Of a stretch of 64,000 nucleotides of DNA, positions 43,635 to 50,072 are shown piece by piece (positions within the stretch are counted from its first letter, which is position 1; every line of letters begins with the position of its first letter). The notes under the pieces are model-generated. The model searched no databases and had not been told where the DNA came from. It saw nothing but the letters and a program-made list of their open reading frames with translations. Source of the DNA: Myxococcota bacterium (GTDB taxonomy: Bacteria; Myxococcota_A; UBA796; CAJQPC01); assembly GCA_036229005.1 (NCBI GenBank), contig JAZAMN010000022.1, positions 6,572 through 70,571 on the forward strand, written 5' to 3'. Both the position numbers and the translations under genes were made by a program.

Positions 43635-44558
43635 ATGGCAGGCCGCAAGCCGCCTTGGCTCAAGGTCAAGTTCCCCTCAGGCGAGCGCCAGGCTCGCTTC
43701 GCGCGCATCAAGAGCCGGGCCCGCGAGCTCAAGCTCCACACCGTGTGCGAAGAGGCCCAGTGCCCCAACCAGGGCGAGTGCTGGGGCGGAGGCACCGCCA
43801 CCTTCATGGTGATGGGCGACATCTGCACCCGCGGCTGCCGCTTCTGCGCCGTGAACACCCGCCGCAACGGCCCCCCTCTGGACCCCGACGAGCCCGCCAA
43901 CGTCGCCTCCGCCATCGCCGAGATGCAGCTTGACTACGTGGTCCTCACCAGCGTCAACCGCGACGACCTGGACGACCAGGGCGCCGGGCACTTCGCCGCC
44001 TGCATCGAGGCCATCCACACGGCCGCCCCCGACACCATGGTCGAGGTCCTCACCCCCGACTTCCGGGGCCGCATGGACCTGGTGGATCTGGTGCTGAACG
44101 CGCGCCCCACCGTCTACGCGCACAACATCGAGACCATCGAGCGCCTGCAGCGCCCCGTGCGCGACCCCCGGGCCAACTACAAGCAGTCCATGGACGTGCT
44201 GGCCCGGGTCAAGGAGCACGATCCCCGGAACTTCTCCAAGTCCTCCATCCAGGTGGGCCTGGGCGAGAAGGAGGCCGAGGTCCTCCAGACCATGCAGGAT
44301 CTGCGCGACGTCGGGGTGGACTTCCTCACCCTGGGGCAGTACCTGCAGCCCACGCAGAAGCACCTCAAGGTCGACGAGTTCATCCCCCCACAGGTCTTTG
44401 ACTGGTACGCCGAGCGCGGCCGGGAGATGGGCTTCAAGTACGTGGCCTCCGGTCCCCTGGTCCGGTCCAGCTACAAGGCGGGCGAGTTCTTCATCCGCGA
44501 GTTCATCGAAAAGCAGCAGCAGGACCCCACCGCATGGCAGAAGCCGCTGGCGCGCTGA
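43635..44558 (+). CDS. lipA: lipoyl synthase
   Basis: CEEAQCPNQGECW and radical-SAM CTRGCRFCAV motifs. 307 aa. Confidence 0.93.
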   Translation: MAGRKPPWLKVKFPSGERQARFARIKSRARELKLHTVCEEAQCPNQGECWGGGTATFMVMGDICTRGCRFCAVNTRRNGPPLDPDEPANVASAIAEMQLDYVVLTSVNRDDLDDQGAGHFAACIEAIHTAAPDTMVEVLTPDFRGRMDLVDLVLNARPTVYAHNIETIERLQRPVRDPRANYKQSMDVLARVKEHDPRNFSKSSIQVGLGEKEAEVLQTMQDLRDVGVDFLTLGQYLQPTQKHLKVDEFIPPQVFDWYAERGREMGFKYVASGPLVRSSYKAGEFFIREFIEKQQQDPTAWQKPLAR

Positions 44559-45427
44559 GCGTCGCCGACTCCATCCGTCAGACCCTCCACGCGGCCATGA
44601 CCGCCGACCCCAGCGTGCTGGTGTTGGGCGAGTCCGTGGGCGCTCTGGGCGGCGTCTTCCGCACCACCACCGGGCTTCAGGCCGAGTTTGGGGAGCAGCG
44701 GGTCGTGCAGACCCCTCTCTCCGAGTCTGCAACCCTCGGGCTGGCCCTGGGCCTCGCCATGGGCGGAAAGCGTCCCGTCGTCGAGGTCGTCACGGGCGCC
44801 GCCGCGGCCTTCTCCCAGCTCGGTGAGCTCGCGACCCTCCACGGGGCCGAGTTCCCCCTCCCCGTCGTCCTGCGCGTGCCCCTGGGCGCCCTGCCCGGCG
44901 GCGGCCACACGGTCGACATGGTCGGCACCCTGGTCGGCATGCCCGGCATCCAGGTCCTGGCCCCCAGCCACCCTGCCGACGCCGCGGCCATGCTCCAGCA
45001 GGCCCTGGACTCCCAGCGCCCCACCGTGCTCATCGAGTCCATCCCCTGCTACGCGGAGCGGGCGAGCAAGCCGGCTGGTGCCCCCGGAAAGGCCGTGGTG
45101 CACCGCTCTGGCCGGGACCTCACCCTGCTCAGCTTCGGCGCCGCCGTCTCCACCTGCGAGGACATCGCGGCCAGCTCCGAGCACGATCTGGGCGTGGTCG
45201 ACCTCCGCAGCCTGAGCCCCCTGGACACCGAGACCCTGGCCGCCGAGCTCCGCCGCTCCGGCCGGGCCATCCTGGTGCACCCCAGCCTGGTGGACGACAC
45301 CCTGTCCCGGAACCTCCTGGCCCAGGTCACCCAGGCCGCCTTCCTCTACCTGGAGTCGCCCCCGACGGCCGTCACCGCGGATCCCGCGGCGCTGTCCCAG
45401 GCCATCTCCGCATCCCTGCGTTTCTAA
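44534..45427 (+). CDS. divergent 2-oxoacid dehydrogenase E1 beta-subunit-like protein
   Basis: Collinear with E1-beta/transketolase Pyr and C-terminal domains (VLGESVGALGGVFRTTTGLQAEFGEQRVVQTPLSE; PGIQVLAPSHPADAAAML; DLRSLSPLD), but several normally conserved segments are altered or shortened. The annotated ATG overlaps lipA by 25 nt, so the start is uncertain. Confidence 0.7.
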   Translation: MAEAAGALSVADSIRQTLHAAMTADPSVLVLGESVGALGGVFRTTTGLQAEFGEQRVVQTPLSESATLGLALGLAMGGKRPVVEVVTGAAAAFSQLGELATLHGAEFPLPVVLRVPLGALPGGGHTVDMVGTLVGMPGIQVLAPSHPADAAAMLQQALDSQRPTVLIESIPCYAERASKPAGAPGKAVVHRSGRDLTLLSFGAAVSTCEDIAASSEHDLGVVDLRSLSPLDTETLAAELRRSGRAILVHPSLVDDTLSRNLLAQVTQAAFLYLESPPTAVTADPAALSQAISASLRF

Positions 45428-45436
45428 GGAGTCTGC

Positions 45437-48840: not shown

Positions 48841-49451
48841 TCGCAGAGACCGATGGCGCCCGCGGGCGCTTCATCGTCATCGAGGGCCTGGACGGCAGCG
48901 GCGGCACCACCCAGGTGCGGCTGCTGTCCCAGGCCCTCGCCGCGACGGCCACACGCGAGCCCACCGATGGCCCCATCGGCAAGCTCATCCGGCAGTCTCT
49001 GGCCGAGCCCATGCTCCTGGGCGACGGGGTGCTCCCCTACCTGTTCGCGGCGGACCGCAAGGACCACCTCGAGCGCCTCATCGAGCCCAAGCTCGCCGCC
49101 GGCGTGGACGTGGTCAGCGACCGCTACCTGCACAGCTCCCTGGCCTACCAGTCCCTGGCCATGCCCTTCGAGCAGGTATTCGCCTTGAACGCCGACTTTC
49201 GAGCGCCAGACCTCTGCGTGATGCTGGAGCTCCCCGTGGCCCAGTGCCTGGAGCGCATCGAGGCCCGCGGCCAGGCCCGCGACCGCTTCGAGACCGAGAA
49301 GCAGCTCGTCGCCATCTCCGAGCAGTACGAGCGCGTGCTGGCCCACCTGGAGGCCCGCGGCGATCGCATCCTGCGCTTGGACGCCAGCCAGAGCATCAAG
49401 GCCCTGCACAAGCAGATCCTGGACGCCGTCCAGTCTCTCAAGGGGGGCTGA
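48837..49451 (+). CDS. thymidylate-kinase-like protein with a non-canonical P-loop (GLDGSGGTT, Lys->Gly)
   Basis: Tmk-fold pattern FIVIEGLDGSGGTTQ, SDRYLHSSLAYQ (DRY motif) and a LID-like ARGQARDRFE. The GTG overlaps the lpd stop (GTGA). Confidence 0.75.
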   Translation: MIAETDGARGRFIVIEGLDGSGGTTQVRLLSQALAATATREPTDGPIGKLIRQSLAEPMLLGDGVLPYLFAADRKDHLERLIEPKLAAGVDVVSDRYLHSSLAYQSLAMPFEQVFALNADFRAPDLCVMLELPVAQCLERIEARGQARDRFETEKQLVAISEQYERVLAHLEARGDRILRLDASQSIKALHKQILDAVQSLKGG

Positions 49452-49454
49452 GCG

Positions 49455-50072
49455 GTGCGCGTGGTGGACCTGGGTCGGCAGCCCTACCGTCAGACATGGG
49501 AGCTGCAGAAGCAGGTTCTCGCGGAGCGCATCCAGGGCGCCGGCGAGGACACCCTGCTGCTGGTCGAGCACGAGCCCGTGTTCACCCTGGGCCGCGCCCG
49601 CTCCAGCCTGCAGCACGTGTTGGATCCCGGGGACGCCGAGGTCATCCAGATCGAGCGCGGCGGCGACGTCACCTGGCACGGCCCCGGCCAGCTCGTGGTC
49701 TACCCCATCGTGGCCCTGCCCCCGGGCCGCCAGGACCTGCACCGGCACCTGAGCGATCTGGAGCAGGCCGTCATCGACACCTGCGCGGACTTTGGCCTGG
49801 AGACCGGCCGCAACGAGCGGAACACCGGGGTGTGGGTCGGCGACCGCAAGCTCGCCAGCATCGGGATCCACTGCCGCCGCTGGGTGACCTGGCACGGGCT
49901 GGCCCTGAACGTGGCCCCGGACATGGCCTGGTTCGACCGCATCGTGGCCTGCGGGCTGGAGGGCGTACGCATGACCTCGCTGGCGGAGCAGTTGTCGTCG
50001 GGGTGTCCGGACATGCATCAGGTCAAGGGGTGCATCGTGACGCACCTGCAGCGCCTGCTCCCCTCTCCTTGA
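49455..50072 (+). CDS. lipB: lipoyl(octanoyl) transferase
   Basis: VEHEPVFTLG, RGGDVTWHGPGQLVVYPI and KLASIGI...TWHGLALNV motifs. Confidence 0.92.
   Translation: MRVVDLGRQPYRQTWELQKQVLAERIQGAGEDTLLLVEHEPVFTLGRARSSLQHVLDPGDAEVIQIERGGDVTWHGPGQLVVYPIVALPPGRQDLHRHLSDLEQAVIDTCADFGLETGRNERNTGVWVGDRKLASIGIHCRRWVTWHGLALNVAPDMAWFDRIVACGLEGVRMTSLAEQLSSGCPDMHQVKGCIVTHLQRLLPSP

Follow-up and report, generated by a model that had tools for sequence, protein, structure and literature searches.

A rearranged Geobacillus-type pyruvate dehydrogenase operon of an uncultured Myxococcota bacterium encodes a conserved E1 pair predicted to be non-catalytic, beside a dTMP kinase-like protein without the Walker lysine

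The locus at 43635–50072 of the window (the whole 64-kb stretch of DNA that was analysed) combines apparently intact genes of lipoate metabolism with two E1-like genes and a dTMP kinase (Tmk)-like gene whose products have lost residues expected for catalysis, and this raises the question of whether the latter three are decaying copies, enzymes with altered chemistry or proteins kept for another purpose. The genes form a close-packed run on the plus strand, on which all features given below lie, in the order lipA, E1beta-like, E2, E1alpha-like, lpd (E3), tmk-like and lipB, with serS and three tRNAs after it; both order and coordinates agree with the first-pass annotation. The lipA stop and the E1beta-like start overlap by 25 nt, TGATG is common to the end of E2 and the start of the E1alpha-like gene, GTGA is common to the end of lpd and the start of tmk, and a gap of 3 nt divides tmk from lipB. 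The stretch downstream (50121–51867) contains serS, tRNA-Ser(TGA), tRNA-Ser(GCT), tRNA-Arg(ACG) and a terminator-like hairpin (51836–51867), which is the first such plus-strand site past lipA.

Four members of this run had been described as canonical, and this was borne out by curated model scores for LipA, Lpd and LipB and by motifs for E2. The lipoyl synthase LipA (307 aa, 43635–44558) scored 396 bits with TIGR00510 (cut-off 310) and contains both cysteine motifs, CX4CX5C and CX3CX2C. The dihydrolipoyl dehydrogenase Lpd (474 aa, 47416–48840) scored 535 bits with TIGR01350 (cut-off 409) and has the redox disulfide CLNVGC and the C-terminal HPHPTLGE, and the octanoyltransferase LipB (205 aa, 49455–50072) scored 170 bits with TIGR00214 (cut-off 83.5). 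The Tmk-like protein (204 aa, 48837–49451) likewise passed its NCBIfam cut-off (TIGR00041, 148 bits against 83). The E2 dihydrolipoyl acyltransferase (420 aa, 45437–46699) matches Pfam Biotin_lipoyl, E3_binding and 2-oxoacid_dh, corresponding to a lipoyl domain with the lysine at TDKA (residue ~42), a peripheral subunit-binding domain (PSBD) and a catalytic domain with DHRIIDG. Its best PDB match is the E2 of Geobacillus pyruvate dehydrogenase (PDH), over the full length and with 324 bits, and the equivalents of the PSBD residues Arg135, Arg139 and Arg156 are kept in that alignment.

The components of the PDH complex of Geobacillus stearothermophilus (E1 alpha2beta2, E2 with PSBD, E3; PDB 1W85, 3DUF) are the best solved relatives not only of E2 but also of the E1beta-like (167 bits) and E1alpha-like proteins, hereafter E1beta' and E1alpha'. 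The likeness extends to the E2 domain layout, the PSBD arginines and both E1 folds. Unlike in Geobacillus, lipA precedes a beta-E2-alpha-E3 arrangement, and E1alpha' is cut to 227 aa. Judged from sequence, the locus is thus a Geobacillus-type (alpha2beta2 E1) operon rearranged to lipA-E1beta'-E2-E1alpha'-lpd.

The residues of the E1 pair and of Tmk were mapped by HMMER alignments to solved structures, with the roles of E1 residues taken from published work (PMC2663715). E1alpha' (46699–47382) matches Pfam E1_dh over residues 24–139 and scored only 89 bits with TIGR03181, whose cut-off is 411; it consists of the PP-domain core without ~45 N-terminal and ~100 C-terminal residues of canonical E1alpha. 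GQG (47032–47040) replaces the GDG of the ThDP-Mg motif, so that Asp173alpha corresponds to Q113, and H140-H141-W142 (47116–47124) replaces Q200-N201-N202alpha of the Mg/diphosphate network. An earlier reading of this motif as GQG-X27-HH was right about the loss of ligands and wrong about the register, as the NN aligns to H141-W142 (X26) and not to H140-H141; in spite of this slight shift, no ligand was found nearby in any register. Furthermore, Y102alpha is replaced by L51 in the alignment to Geobacillus E1 and H271alpha is deleted together with its loop, while Arg52, the equivalent of Arg103alpha, is retained. The AF2 model of E1alpha' (pLDDT 92.2) superposes on E1alpha with a TMq of about 0.8.

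E1beta' (297 aa, 44534–45427) matches Pfam Transket_pyr and Transketolase_C and scored 153 bits with NF006667 (cut-off 321); the Pyr and C-terminal domains are kept and active-site residues are lost. At the junction T126/V127 (44909–44914), alignment to 1w85_B and 3duf_B showed five residues missing, Geobacillus P125-S129, including the catalytic His128beta (role from PMC2663715). The first-pass annotation had noticed that this segment was altered and described it as a substitution of HSQS by HTVD, but it is really a five-residue deletion just past the conserved H125-T126. In addition, F82beta is replaced by T87 and F85beta by A89. Glu64 (44723–44725), the equivalent of Glu59beta, is the sole survivor of nine named active-site residues of Geobacillus E1 (alpha and beta). 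The AF2 model (pLDDT 89.5) gave a TMq of 0.8–0.88 to E1beta structures. E1beta' is also shorter than canonical E1beta by ~30 C-terminal residues. As the beta C-terminal domains are where the Geobacillus PSBD binds, this shortening might change or abolish docking.

Taken together, the E1 pair has kept its folds and lost the ThDP-Mg ligands, the contact to diphosphate and thiazole, the pyrimidine-stacking phenylalanine and both catalytic histidines; the residues D173, N202, Y102 and H271 (alpha) and F85 and H128 (beta) of Geobacillus E1 are all missing here. From these losses, the pair is predicted neither to bind ThDP in the known way nor to carry out 2-oxoacid decarboxylation or reductive acylation of lipoate, and having lost the defining catalytic features of E1 it would not be a functional member of that family.

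Scores so far under the curated cut-offs, in sequences that come from metagenome assemblies, would also be expected of recent pseudogenes or of assembly errors in a single metagenome-assembled genome (MAG), but the comparison of orthologues effectively refuted this explanation. Proteins 100% identical to E1alpha', E1beta' and the Tmk-like protein occur in independent public assemblies (P0001, P0121, P0241), and about 110 public homologues of the dead E1, all derived from metagenomes or MAGs and with identity down to 40%, show the same losses. None of the 111 short E1alpha' homologues keeps Asp at the GDG position (Q in 56, I in 19, E in 13, V and M in 7 each, T in 4, L in 3, S and P in 1 each), the EHHSxS motif is present in no E1beta' family member aligned, and both catalytic histidine loops are deleted in all members; thus, the orthologues are not canonical. 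The E1-like frames are intact, with a GC3 of 0.92–0.96 like that of the neighbouring genes, and to turn the glycine codon at the Walker position of tmk (GGC) into any lysine codon would take two or more base changes. The dN/dS against the closest relative (L090) was below 0.5 throughout, with 0.26 for E1alpha' and 0.43 for E1beta' as compared with 0.23 for E2, 0.32 for lpd and 0.49 for lipB. Since the values of the E1 pair lie inside the range of the neighbouring genes and the losses are family-wide, these findings indicate a conserved dead E1 and not decay. E1beta' evolves considerably faster than the other operon genes (33–45% identity, against 58–73% for E2 and lpd), and this divergence may be a sign of weaker constraint.

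The purifying selection on both E1-like genes would also fit an enzyme or a ligand sensor with altered chemistry, in which the remodelled pocket would hold a different cofactor or metabolite, for example thiamine without the diphosphate or a phosphate ligand bound through Arg52. Arg52 and Glu53 are indeed invariant in the E1alpha' family, as are the pocket-proximal R89, Q154 and P150, and Glu64 is kept in the E1beta' subfamily of the window. Some ligand binding through the retained Arg52 and Glu64beta is therefore possible as far as these residues go. The former ligand positions, however, vary freely (Q/I/E/V/M/T at the one and V/S/R/A/T at the other) and have not been re-fixed, which is the pattern of an abandoned rather than a re-purposed pocket. 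Added to this, the catalytic histidine loops are gone from every member, and the Glu59beta position is unconserved over the wider E1beta' family (E, D or A), the remoter members having D or A. Altered chemistry is thus very improbable as an account of this pair, and the losses together with the retention of both genes fit pseudo-enzymes kept for a non-catalytic role.

The conserved gene context agrees with such a role. The block lipA-E1beta'-E2-E1alpha'-lpd is conserved in loci L003–L006, L081–L084 and L090, and lipA immediately precedes E1beta' in L003, L004, L006, L081–L084 and L090, usually with an overlap or a gap of a few bases. No canonical E1 or tmk was found within the 64-kb window, and no second E1 in any 20-kb locus examined. 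The position of lipA immediately 5' of E1beta' in nearly every locus and of lipB within or near the same operon, along with this absence of a second E1, could also be explained if the dead E1 were a lipoate-assembly adaptor. Such an adaptor would have retained nothing of E1 function but the recognition of the lipoyl domain of E2, whose swinging arm it would accommodate in the empty active-site funnel, and its task would be to present the octanoyl/lipoyl domain to LipA and LipB or to shield that domain. E2 and E3 might in this case operate as a core that needs no E1, for instance in NADH-linked lipoyl redox chemistry comparable with that of the mycobacterial Lpd/DlaT/AhpD system. Peroxiredoxin genes were found close by in L082 and L090, in one case together with a glutathione peroxidase, but the other loci, of about 12 in all, lack this linkage. 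The arrangement of lipA or lipB next to E2 genes is ordinary in some bacteria, and E2 has an intact acyltransferase site (DHRIIDG), for which a redox or relay module working without E1 would have no use. We therefore regard the adaptor as unlikely, while giving it some weight.

The Tmk-like protein called for a separate explanation. Its P-loop reads EGLDGSGGTT (48882–48911), with Gly23 (codon GGC, 48903–48905) at the position of the Walker lysine, and alignment to the Thermus Tmk confirmed the earlier observation that this lysine is lost. A Lys-less P-loop occurs in none of the solved Tmk structures among the alignments listed. It is general among the relatives, being found in 118 of 118 top homologues with a recognisable P-loop and in 125 of the 150 nearest cluster representatives (19 have the lysine, and in 6 the P-loop was not found). 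The residue at this position in the 125 Lys-less representatives was T in 95, L in 8, G, Q and I in 5 each, S in 4, H in 2 and V in 1. Lys-less and Lys-type neighbours differ consistently in the lysine column only. The Lys-less proteins retain DRY as well as the LID arginines, and their dTMP-binding and LID residues are at least 90% conserved. Thus, the protein resembles the dTMP kinase family (TIGR00041/PF02223; Tmk of E. coli and Thermus thermophilus) in the dTMP-binding residues, the DRY motif, the LID arginines and the Walker threonines, and differs from it in Walker A, where the lysine is Gly here and Thr, Gly, Ser, Leu, Ile, Gln, His or Val in the wider clade.

If the Tmk-like protein were a pseudo-kinase or had changed its phosphoryl donor, and cooperated with LipB or lipoyl proteins, this would account for the lost lysine and for the tmk-lipB pair, which overlaps or abuts in eight loci of the lineage (the window, L003, L082, L083, L086–L088 and L090). 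The pair persists even when detached from the E1/E2/E3 core, as in MAG GCA_020632795.1, where the tmk-lipB-serS group is on a different contig. An exapted Tmk paralogue with a non-catalytic partner also has a precedent in PPK3 (Saci_2019/Saci_2020), a polyphosphate kinase of Tmk fold whose regulatory subunit is non-catalytic (PMC12995831). The resemblance is reversed in detail, as PPK3 keeps the ATP/ADP site and has lost the dTMP site, and rPPK3 lacks the DRX arginine (PMC12995831), whereas the Tmk-like protein keeps the dTMP site and DRY and has lost only the P-loop lysine; it is not a PPK3 family member. The Lys-less state also reaches far beyond the lineage in which tmk is linked to lipB. 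The proteins of the cultured Hyalangium versicolor (WP_224366597.1) and H. gracile (WP_224249896.1) belong to the same clade and lack the lysine (EGLDGAGTTT), with Thr instead of Gly at that position and no lipB or lipoate gene adjacent, so the trait is lineage-wide and present in a protein that RefSeq names dTMP kinase. A Thr-type member in another MAG (L092) adjoins a DNA polymerase III delta-like gene, and L084 has tmk without lipB. A pseudo-kinase partner of LipB is, on this balance, rather improbable. Membership of Tmk in the lipoate module was rejected on the clade-wide loss of the lysine, the Hyalangium and L092 contexts, the separate contig and the otherwise intact residues. On comparative grounds, the tmk-like gene is probably the ordinary Tmk orthologue of its lineage, syntenic with lipB and serS, and no part of a device built on the dead E1. 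Geobacter genomes reportedly encode a second, divergent putative Tmk beside the canonical one (PMC2700814), and so a situation with two paralogues is possible.

The proposal of the first-pass annotation that all three unusual proteins are pseudo-enzymes around a lipoylated core is thus upheld for the E1 pair, by the family-wide loss, the purifying selection and the kept block, and not for Tmk as a member of the lipoate module. We hold with moderate confidence that the locus is a rearranged Geobacillus-type PDH or 2-oxoacid dehydrogenase operon in which the dead E1 would serve E2 and E3 as a non-catalytic subunit, with Tmk unrelated to it. No described dead E1 was found in the searchable literature. 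The nearest precedent for the proposed role may be E3BP (PDHX), an E2 paralogue in the PDH complexes of eukaryotes that is catalytically inactive and acts as a structural subunit (PMC10156792). Both are components of a 2-oxoacid dehydrogenase complex that lost catalysis and were retained, presumably for assembly; E3BP differs in being a dead E2, eukaryotic and of experimentally established structural role, whereas the role of the dead E1 is deduced here. The alpha'beta' pair would still assemble and dock on E2; the contact could be made by the PSBD, in which all three key arginines are preserved, or by the lipoyl domain. Another E1, with its gene at a different place in the genome, would supply any actual decarboxylase activity. 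The docked pair may thus function as a structural or regulatory subunit of the complex, much as E3BP does as a dead E2.

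The operon at 43635-50072 consists of seven plus-strand genes in succession, joined by overlaps or tiny gaps, in a window with a G+C content of ~70%. The order and coordinates of lipA (43635-44558), E1beta-like (44534-45427), E2 (45437-46699), E1alpha-like (46699-47382), lpd (47416-48840), tmk-like (48837-49451) and lipB (49455-50072) were as described in the first-pass annotation, which had noticed a lipoate operon with altered E1 and Tmk members, and public databases hold identical copies of the E1alpha-like, E1beta-like and Tmk-like proteins from MAGs labelled ‘Myxococcota bacterium’. 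The LipA, E3 and LipB proteins passed their NCBIfam cut-offs and were canonical, as had been claimed. The 3' side of lipB (50121-51867, plus strand) carries serS, tRNA-Ser(TGA), tRNA-Ser(GCT), tRNA-Arg(ACG) and a strong terminator-like hairpin with a 14-bp stem (51836-51867), which is the first terminator-like site on the plus strand after lipA. Because serS directly precedes the two tRNA-Ser genes and then tRNA-Arg(ACG), the synthetase gene may share a transcript with two tRNAs that the enzyme charges. Upstream of lipA, no riboswitch or other RNA control element was found at Rfam gathering thresholds and no sigma-70-like promoter was matched.

The surroundings of the operon showed several other features. 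Directly upstream of lipA, the region 39459-43529 (+) encodes a 1356-aa protein with N-terminal FG-GAP-like repeats, many tandem Cys/Asp-rich repeats of the type CDDxD...PGAxE..DGxDxDCDG and a MYXO-CTERM-like C-terminal tail (GC...RRRRRA). Just past the tRNA cluster lies a gene for a NADAR-domain protein of 227 aa (52108-52791, minus strand; 179 bits), and the closest full-operon relative (L090) has a thioredoxin-fold peroxiredoxin at this position instead. Two cobalamin riboswitches were detected in the window at 22946-23144 (-) and 32089-32306 (-) with scores of 106 and 80 bits; one lies upstream of a TonB-dependent receptor gene (20831-22957) and the other upstream of a cluster for a FecCD permease, a periplasmic binding protein and a CobA/BtuR adenosyltransferase (28742-32026).

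The short E1alpha-like protein (227 aa, hereafter E1alpha') was found to be homologous to the PP domain of E1alpha, and the E1beta-like protein (297 aa, hereafter E1beta') to the Pyr and C-terminal domains of E1beta, in PDB phmmer searches and in Pfam, where PF00676 stands for E1alpha and PF02779 plus PF02780 for E1beta. Their AF2 models were confident (pLDDT of 92.2 for E1alpha' and 89.5 for E1beta'), and Foldseek of these monomer predictions gave TMq values of ~0.8 to E1alpha and 0.80-0.88 to E1beta, respectively. Both proteins missed the NCBIfam cut-offs of full-length E1 (E1alpha', TIGR03181, 89 vs 411 bits; E1beta', NF006667, 153 vs 321 bits); E1alpha' is without ~45 N-terminal and ~100 C-terminal residues of canonical E1alpha, and E1beta' is short by ~30 C-terminal residues.

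The active-site residues were mapped by HMMER alignments to the Geobacillus stearothermophilus PDH E1 structures, with functional residues as named earlier (PMC2663715). In E1alpha', Tyr102alpha, which contacts the thiazole and the terminal phosphate, is replaced by Leu51; the Mg ligand Asp173alpha of the GDG motif by Gln113; and Gln200/Asn201/Asn202alpha of the Mg/diphosphate network by His140/His141/Trp142, whereas His271alpha, needed for reductive acetylation, is deleted together with its loop. In E1beta', Phe82beta of the hydrophobic nest around His128beta is replaced by Thr87 and Phe85beta, which stacks on the pyrimidine, by Ala89; His128beta itself (substrate contact and acid/base residue) falls within a 5-residue deletion past His125-Thr126, and only Glu59beta, required for cofactor activation, is retained, as Glu64. 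The ThDP-Mg motif GDG-X(25-30)-NN reads GQG-X26-HW in E1alpha'. The ligand loss reported in the first-pass annotation as GQG-X27-HH stood, with the register corrected by one residue, and the loss it read in E1beta' as HSQS to HTVD was likewise real, with the 5-residue deletion in place of that substitution. The possibility that mis-registration hides the ligands was ruled out, as HMMER and MAFFT alignments placed no Asp, Asn or His ligand nearby in any register. As judged from these residues, the E1alpha'beta' pair is predicted to be unable to bind ThDP-Mg as canonical E1 does or to perform E1 catalysis.

The same losses were found throughout the family. A search of 5.8 billion proteins returned 111 E1alpha' homologues of short length (161-269 aa). 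Every one derives from a metagenome or a MAG, and those with an organism label are Myxococcota or MAGs deposited as Alpha- or Deltaproteobacteria; a gap in the score list followed them, and canonical E1alpha appeared from 86 bits downward. The GDG Asp was present in none of the 111, the position being occupied by Gln (56), Ile (19), Glu (13), Val (7), Met (7), Thr (4), Leu (3), Ser (1) or Pro (1), and the orthologues, like the window protein, lack the canonical motif. At the Tyr102alpha position, 91 members have Leu and 17 have Pro, and the Asn ligand positions are likewise lost and variable. Because the former ligand positions vary in this way, the E1alpha' pocket appears to have been abandoned and not re-tooled for a new ligand. 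For E1beta', an alignment built from called-gene coordinates showed that the EHHSxS motif is missing from all aligned members and that the Glu59beta position is E, D or A; the His271alpha and His128beta positions lie inside deletions in the window proteins and in every aligned family member. Some of the E1alpha' homologues (P0043-P0046 and P0053) end in a tail of the Rho_N/SAP-like helix-extended-helix type (PF07498), e.g. ‘...GYSRMKKAELIKELS’, which hints at a putative added binding module.

The E1alpha' and E1beta' genes have intact frames and a GC3 of 0.92-0.96, as in their neighbours. The dN/dS values (NG86) between the window and L090 were 0.19 for lipA, 0.43 for E1beta', 0.23 for E2, 0.26 for E1alpha', 0.32 for lpd, 0.29 for tmk, 0.49 for lipB and 0.23 for serS. 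E1beta' was the fastest-evolving protein of the block, with 33-45% identity between loci as compared to 58-73% for E2 and lpd. Sequencing error or a pseudogene was ruled out as an explanation by identical proteins in independent assemblies, ~110 homologues with the same losses and dN/dS below 0.5. From these substitution patterns, the pair is taken to be retained by selection, and together with the family-wide residue loss this supported one of the two earlier alternatives, that the two proteins are pseudo-enzymes, and conserved ones.

Four GTDB species representatives (L003-L006) and five contigs from metagenomes or MAGs (L081-L084 and L090) share the lipA-E1beta'-E2-E1alpha'-lpd order. Among 80 loci returned from 185,579 GTDB species genomes, only 6 belong to this family, which indicated that the lineage is rare and uncultured; the remaining 74, all of them canonical E1alpha genes of other phyla, were left out of the comparison. 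A tblastn search of the 64-kb window with canonical E1alpha, E. coli Tmk and the proteins of the operon itself as queries matched the operon genes only and found no second E1 or tmk, 20 flanking ORFs gave no relevant Pfam match, and no other E1 gene was present in any 20-kb locus examined. In the long contigs L082, L083 and L084, some of which come from Pilon-polished assemblies, lipA, E2, lpd or E1beta' look split or frameshifted; these are probably indels introduced by the assemblies and not real pseudogenes. Peroxiredoxin-type genes (AhpC-TSA/1-CysPrx and AhpC-TSA/Redoxin) occur near the operon in L082 (2792-4066 and 19622-20176) and L090 (10627-11361), and a glutathione peroxidase gene lies directly 3' of lipB in L082. 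Neither type of gene was found in the window, and the linkage, seen in these two related loci only, was considered too weak as a functional clue.

The E2 protein aligns end to end with the G. stearothermophilus PDH E2 (324 bits) and contains all three Pfam domains. Its comparison with 3duf_I showed that the lipoyl-lysine motif TDKA, the equivalents of Arg135, Arg139 and Arg156 in the PSBD and the catalytic DHRIIDG are all conserved, in agreement with its earlier description as canonical. Because no NCBIfam equivalog cut-off was reached, the substrate class of this E2 (pyruvate or branched-chain) was left unassigned. An E1 without an active site occurs in fixed linkage with E2, E3 and LipA that are catalytically intact by sequence. 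The pair most likely works as a structural or regulatory subunit of the complex: E1alpha' and E1beta' would still form an E1-like assembly and dock on E2 by way of its PSBD and/or its lipoyl domain, and the acyl groups for E2 would be supplied by another E1 encoded elsewhere. The shortened C-terminus of E1beta' makes docking to the PSBD uncertain. The main rival is that the pair serves as a lipoyl-domain adaptor for LipA/LipB, possibly within an E2/E3 redox module that has no E1; a role wholly free of E1 is disfavoured by the acyltransferase site of E2, which is intact. The nearest precedent for the proposed structural or regulatory subunit is E3BP of PDH complexes, which is a dead E2 (PMC10156792), and our literature search for a conserved dead E1 found no report.

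The Walker A lysine is regarded as indispensable in P-loop kinases. The tmk-like product passed the dTMP kinase HMM (TIGR00041, 148 vs 83 bits; PF02223, 133 bits), and its P-loop at 48882-48911 reads EGLDGSGGTT, in which the Lys of GxxxxGK[ST] is replaced by Gly (codon GGC), as first noticed. A P-loop was identified in 118 of the nearest homologues, none of which has the Lys (GGTT 88, GTTT 17, GSTT 11 and GGST 2). When 1.84 billion cluster representatives (50% identity clusters) were searched exhaustively, the position in the best 150 was T in 95, K in 19, L in 8, G, Q and I in 5 each, S in 4, H in 2 and V in 1, with no P-loop found in 6; thus 125 of these 150 are Lys-less, with the consensus EG[LI]DG[AS]G[T/G/S/L/I/Q/H/V]TT (proteins P0397, P0530 and P0539; loci L089 and L092). 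A neighbour-joining tree placed the Lys types mostly near the base and most sequences in Thr-dominated groups, while the Gly sequences, the window's lineage included, sit together. One Thr-type cluster includes proteins that RefSeq names ‘dTMP kinase’ from the cultured species Hyalangium versicolor and H. gracile.

A column-by-column comparison of 122 Lys-less with 20 Lys-type sequences showed that the dTMP-site residues Phe70, Arg74, Asp95-Arg96-Tyr97 and Gln105, the LID residues Arg140 and Arg144 and the Walker threonines are conserved alike in both. It revealed no compensating basic residue in the Lys-less proteins, and apart from the Lys column only window residue 183 differed, by a preference for Gly or Ala. 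The Tmk-fold polyphosphate kinase PPK3 was rejected both as an identity and as a model of the function, because PPK3 keeps the ATP/ADP site and does not conserve the dTMP-binding residues (PMC12995831), which is the opposite pattern, and the ppx/CHAD neighbourhood was not found.

The tmk gene is flanked in the window by lpd, lipB and serS, and in this lineage the tmk-lipB(-serS) pairing is conserved, often with an overlap of the genes. In the MAG GCA_020632795.1, tmk-lipB(-serS) and the E1/E2/E3 core are on separate contigs, and in the two Hyalangium species tmk does not adjoin lipB. Another Thr-type tmk (L092) adjoins a DNA polymerase III delta-like gene, and a housekeeping arrangement in which tmk neighbours holB is common. 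For the Lys-type Tmk, the neighbourhoods looked up were one phage-like contig and one Firmicutes-like context. The Lys-type protein closest to the Gly-type subclade of the window (P0366) comes from L085, a 12-kb contig with nearly all small ORFs without Pfam matches, which looks like phage. The homologue, tree and synteny data therefore indicated that the Lys-less P-loop is a clade-wide trait and not an operon-specific degeneration, and the earlier suggestion that Tmk belongs to a lipoate-centred module was not upheld. The protein is most likely the ordinary Tmk of the lineage. Whether it would be the clade's only dTMP kinase, working without the Walker A lysine, is to our judgement evenly balanced; a second, divergent Tmk has been reported in Geobacter genomes (PMC2700814), which makes a paralogue scenario possible. 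We consider it improbable that all of the following hold together: that the E1alpha'beta' pair is a novel type of accessory factor, an E1 reduced to lipoyl-domain/PSBD docking surfaces which couples LipA/LipB to E2, that the E2/E3 core of these Myxococcota has no cognate E1 and acts, e.g. as a lipoyl redox module, and that the clade's only dTMP kinase works without the lysine.

E1 is the committed, rate-limiting catalyst of 2-oxoacid dehydrogenase complexes. The novelty here is a PDH-type complex whose E1 is dead, as a variant of a known system; if the pair is structural or regulatory, the docking function of E1 (PSBD and lipoyl-domain recognition) would have been separated from its chemistry, and the pair would be a natural tool to study complex assembly or lipoylation. 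Literature searches on Lys-less Tmk and on the P-loop peptide gave nothing relevant, and the clade-wide trait is apparently undescribed. A clade that includes culturable myxobacteria has Thr, Gly or another residue at the Walker Lys with everything else intact, which would mean either that the enzyme is active without the lysine or that dTDP is made by a second route so far unrecognised.
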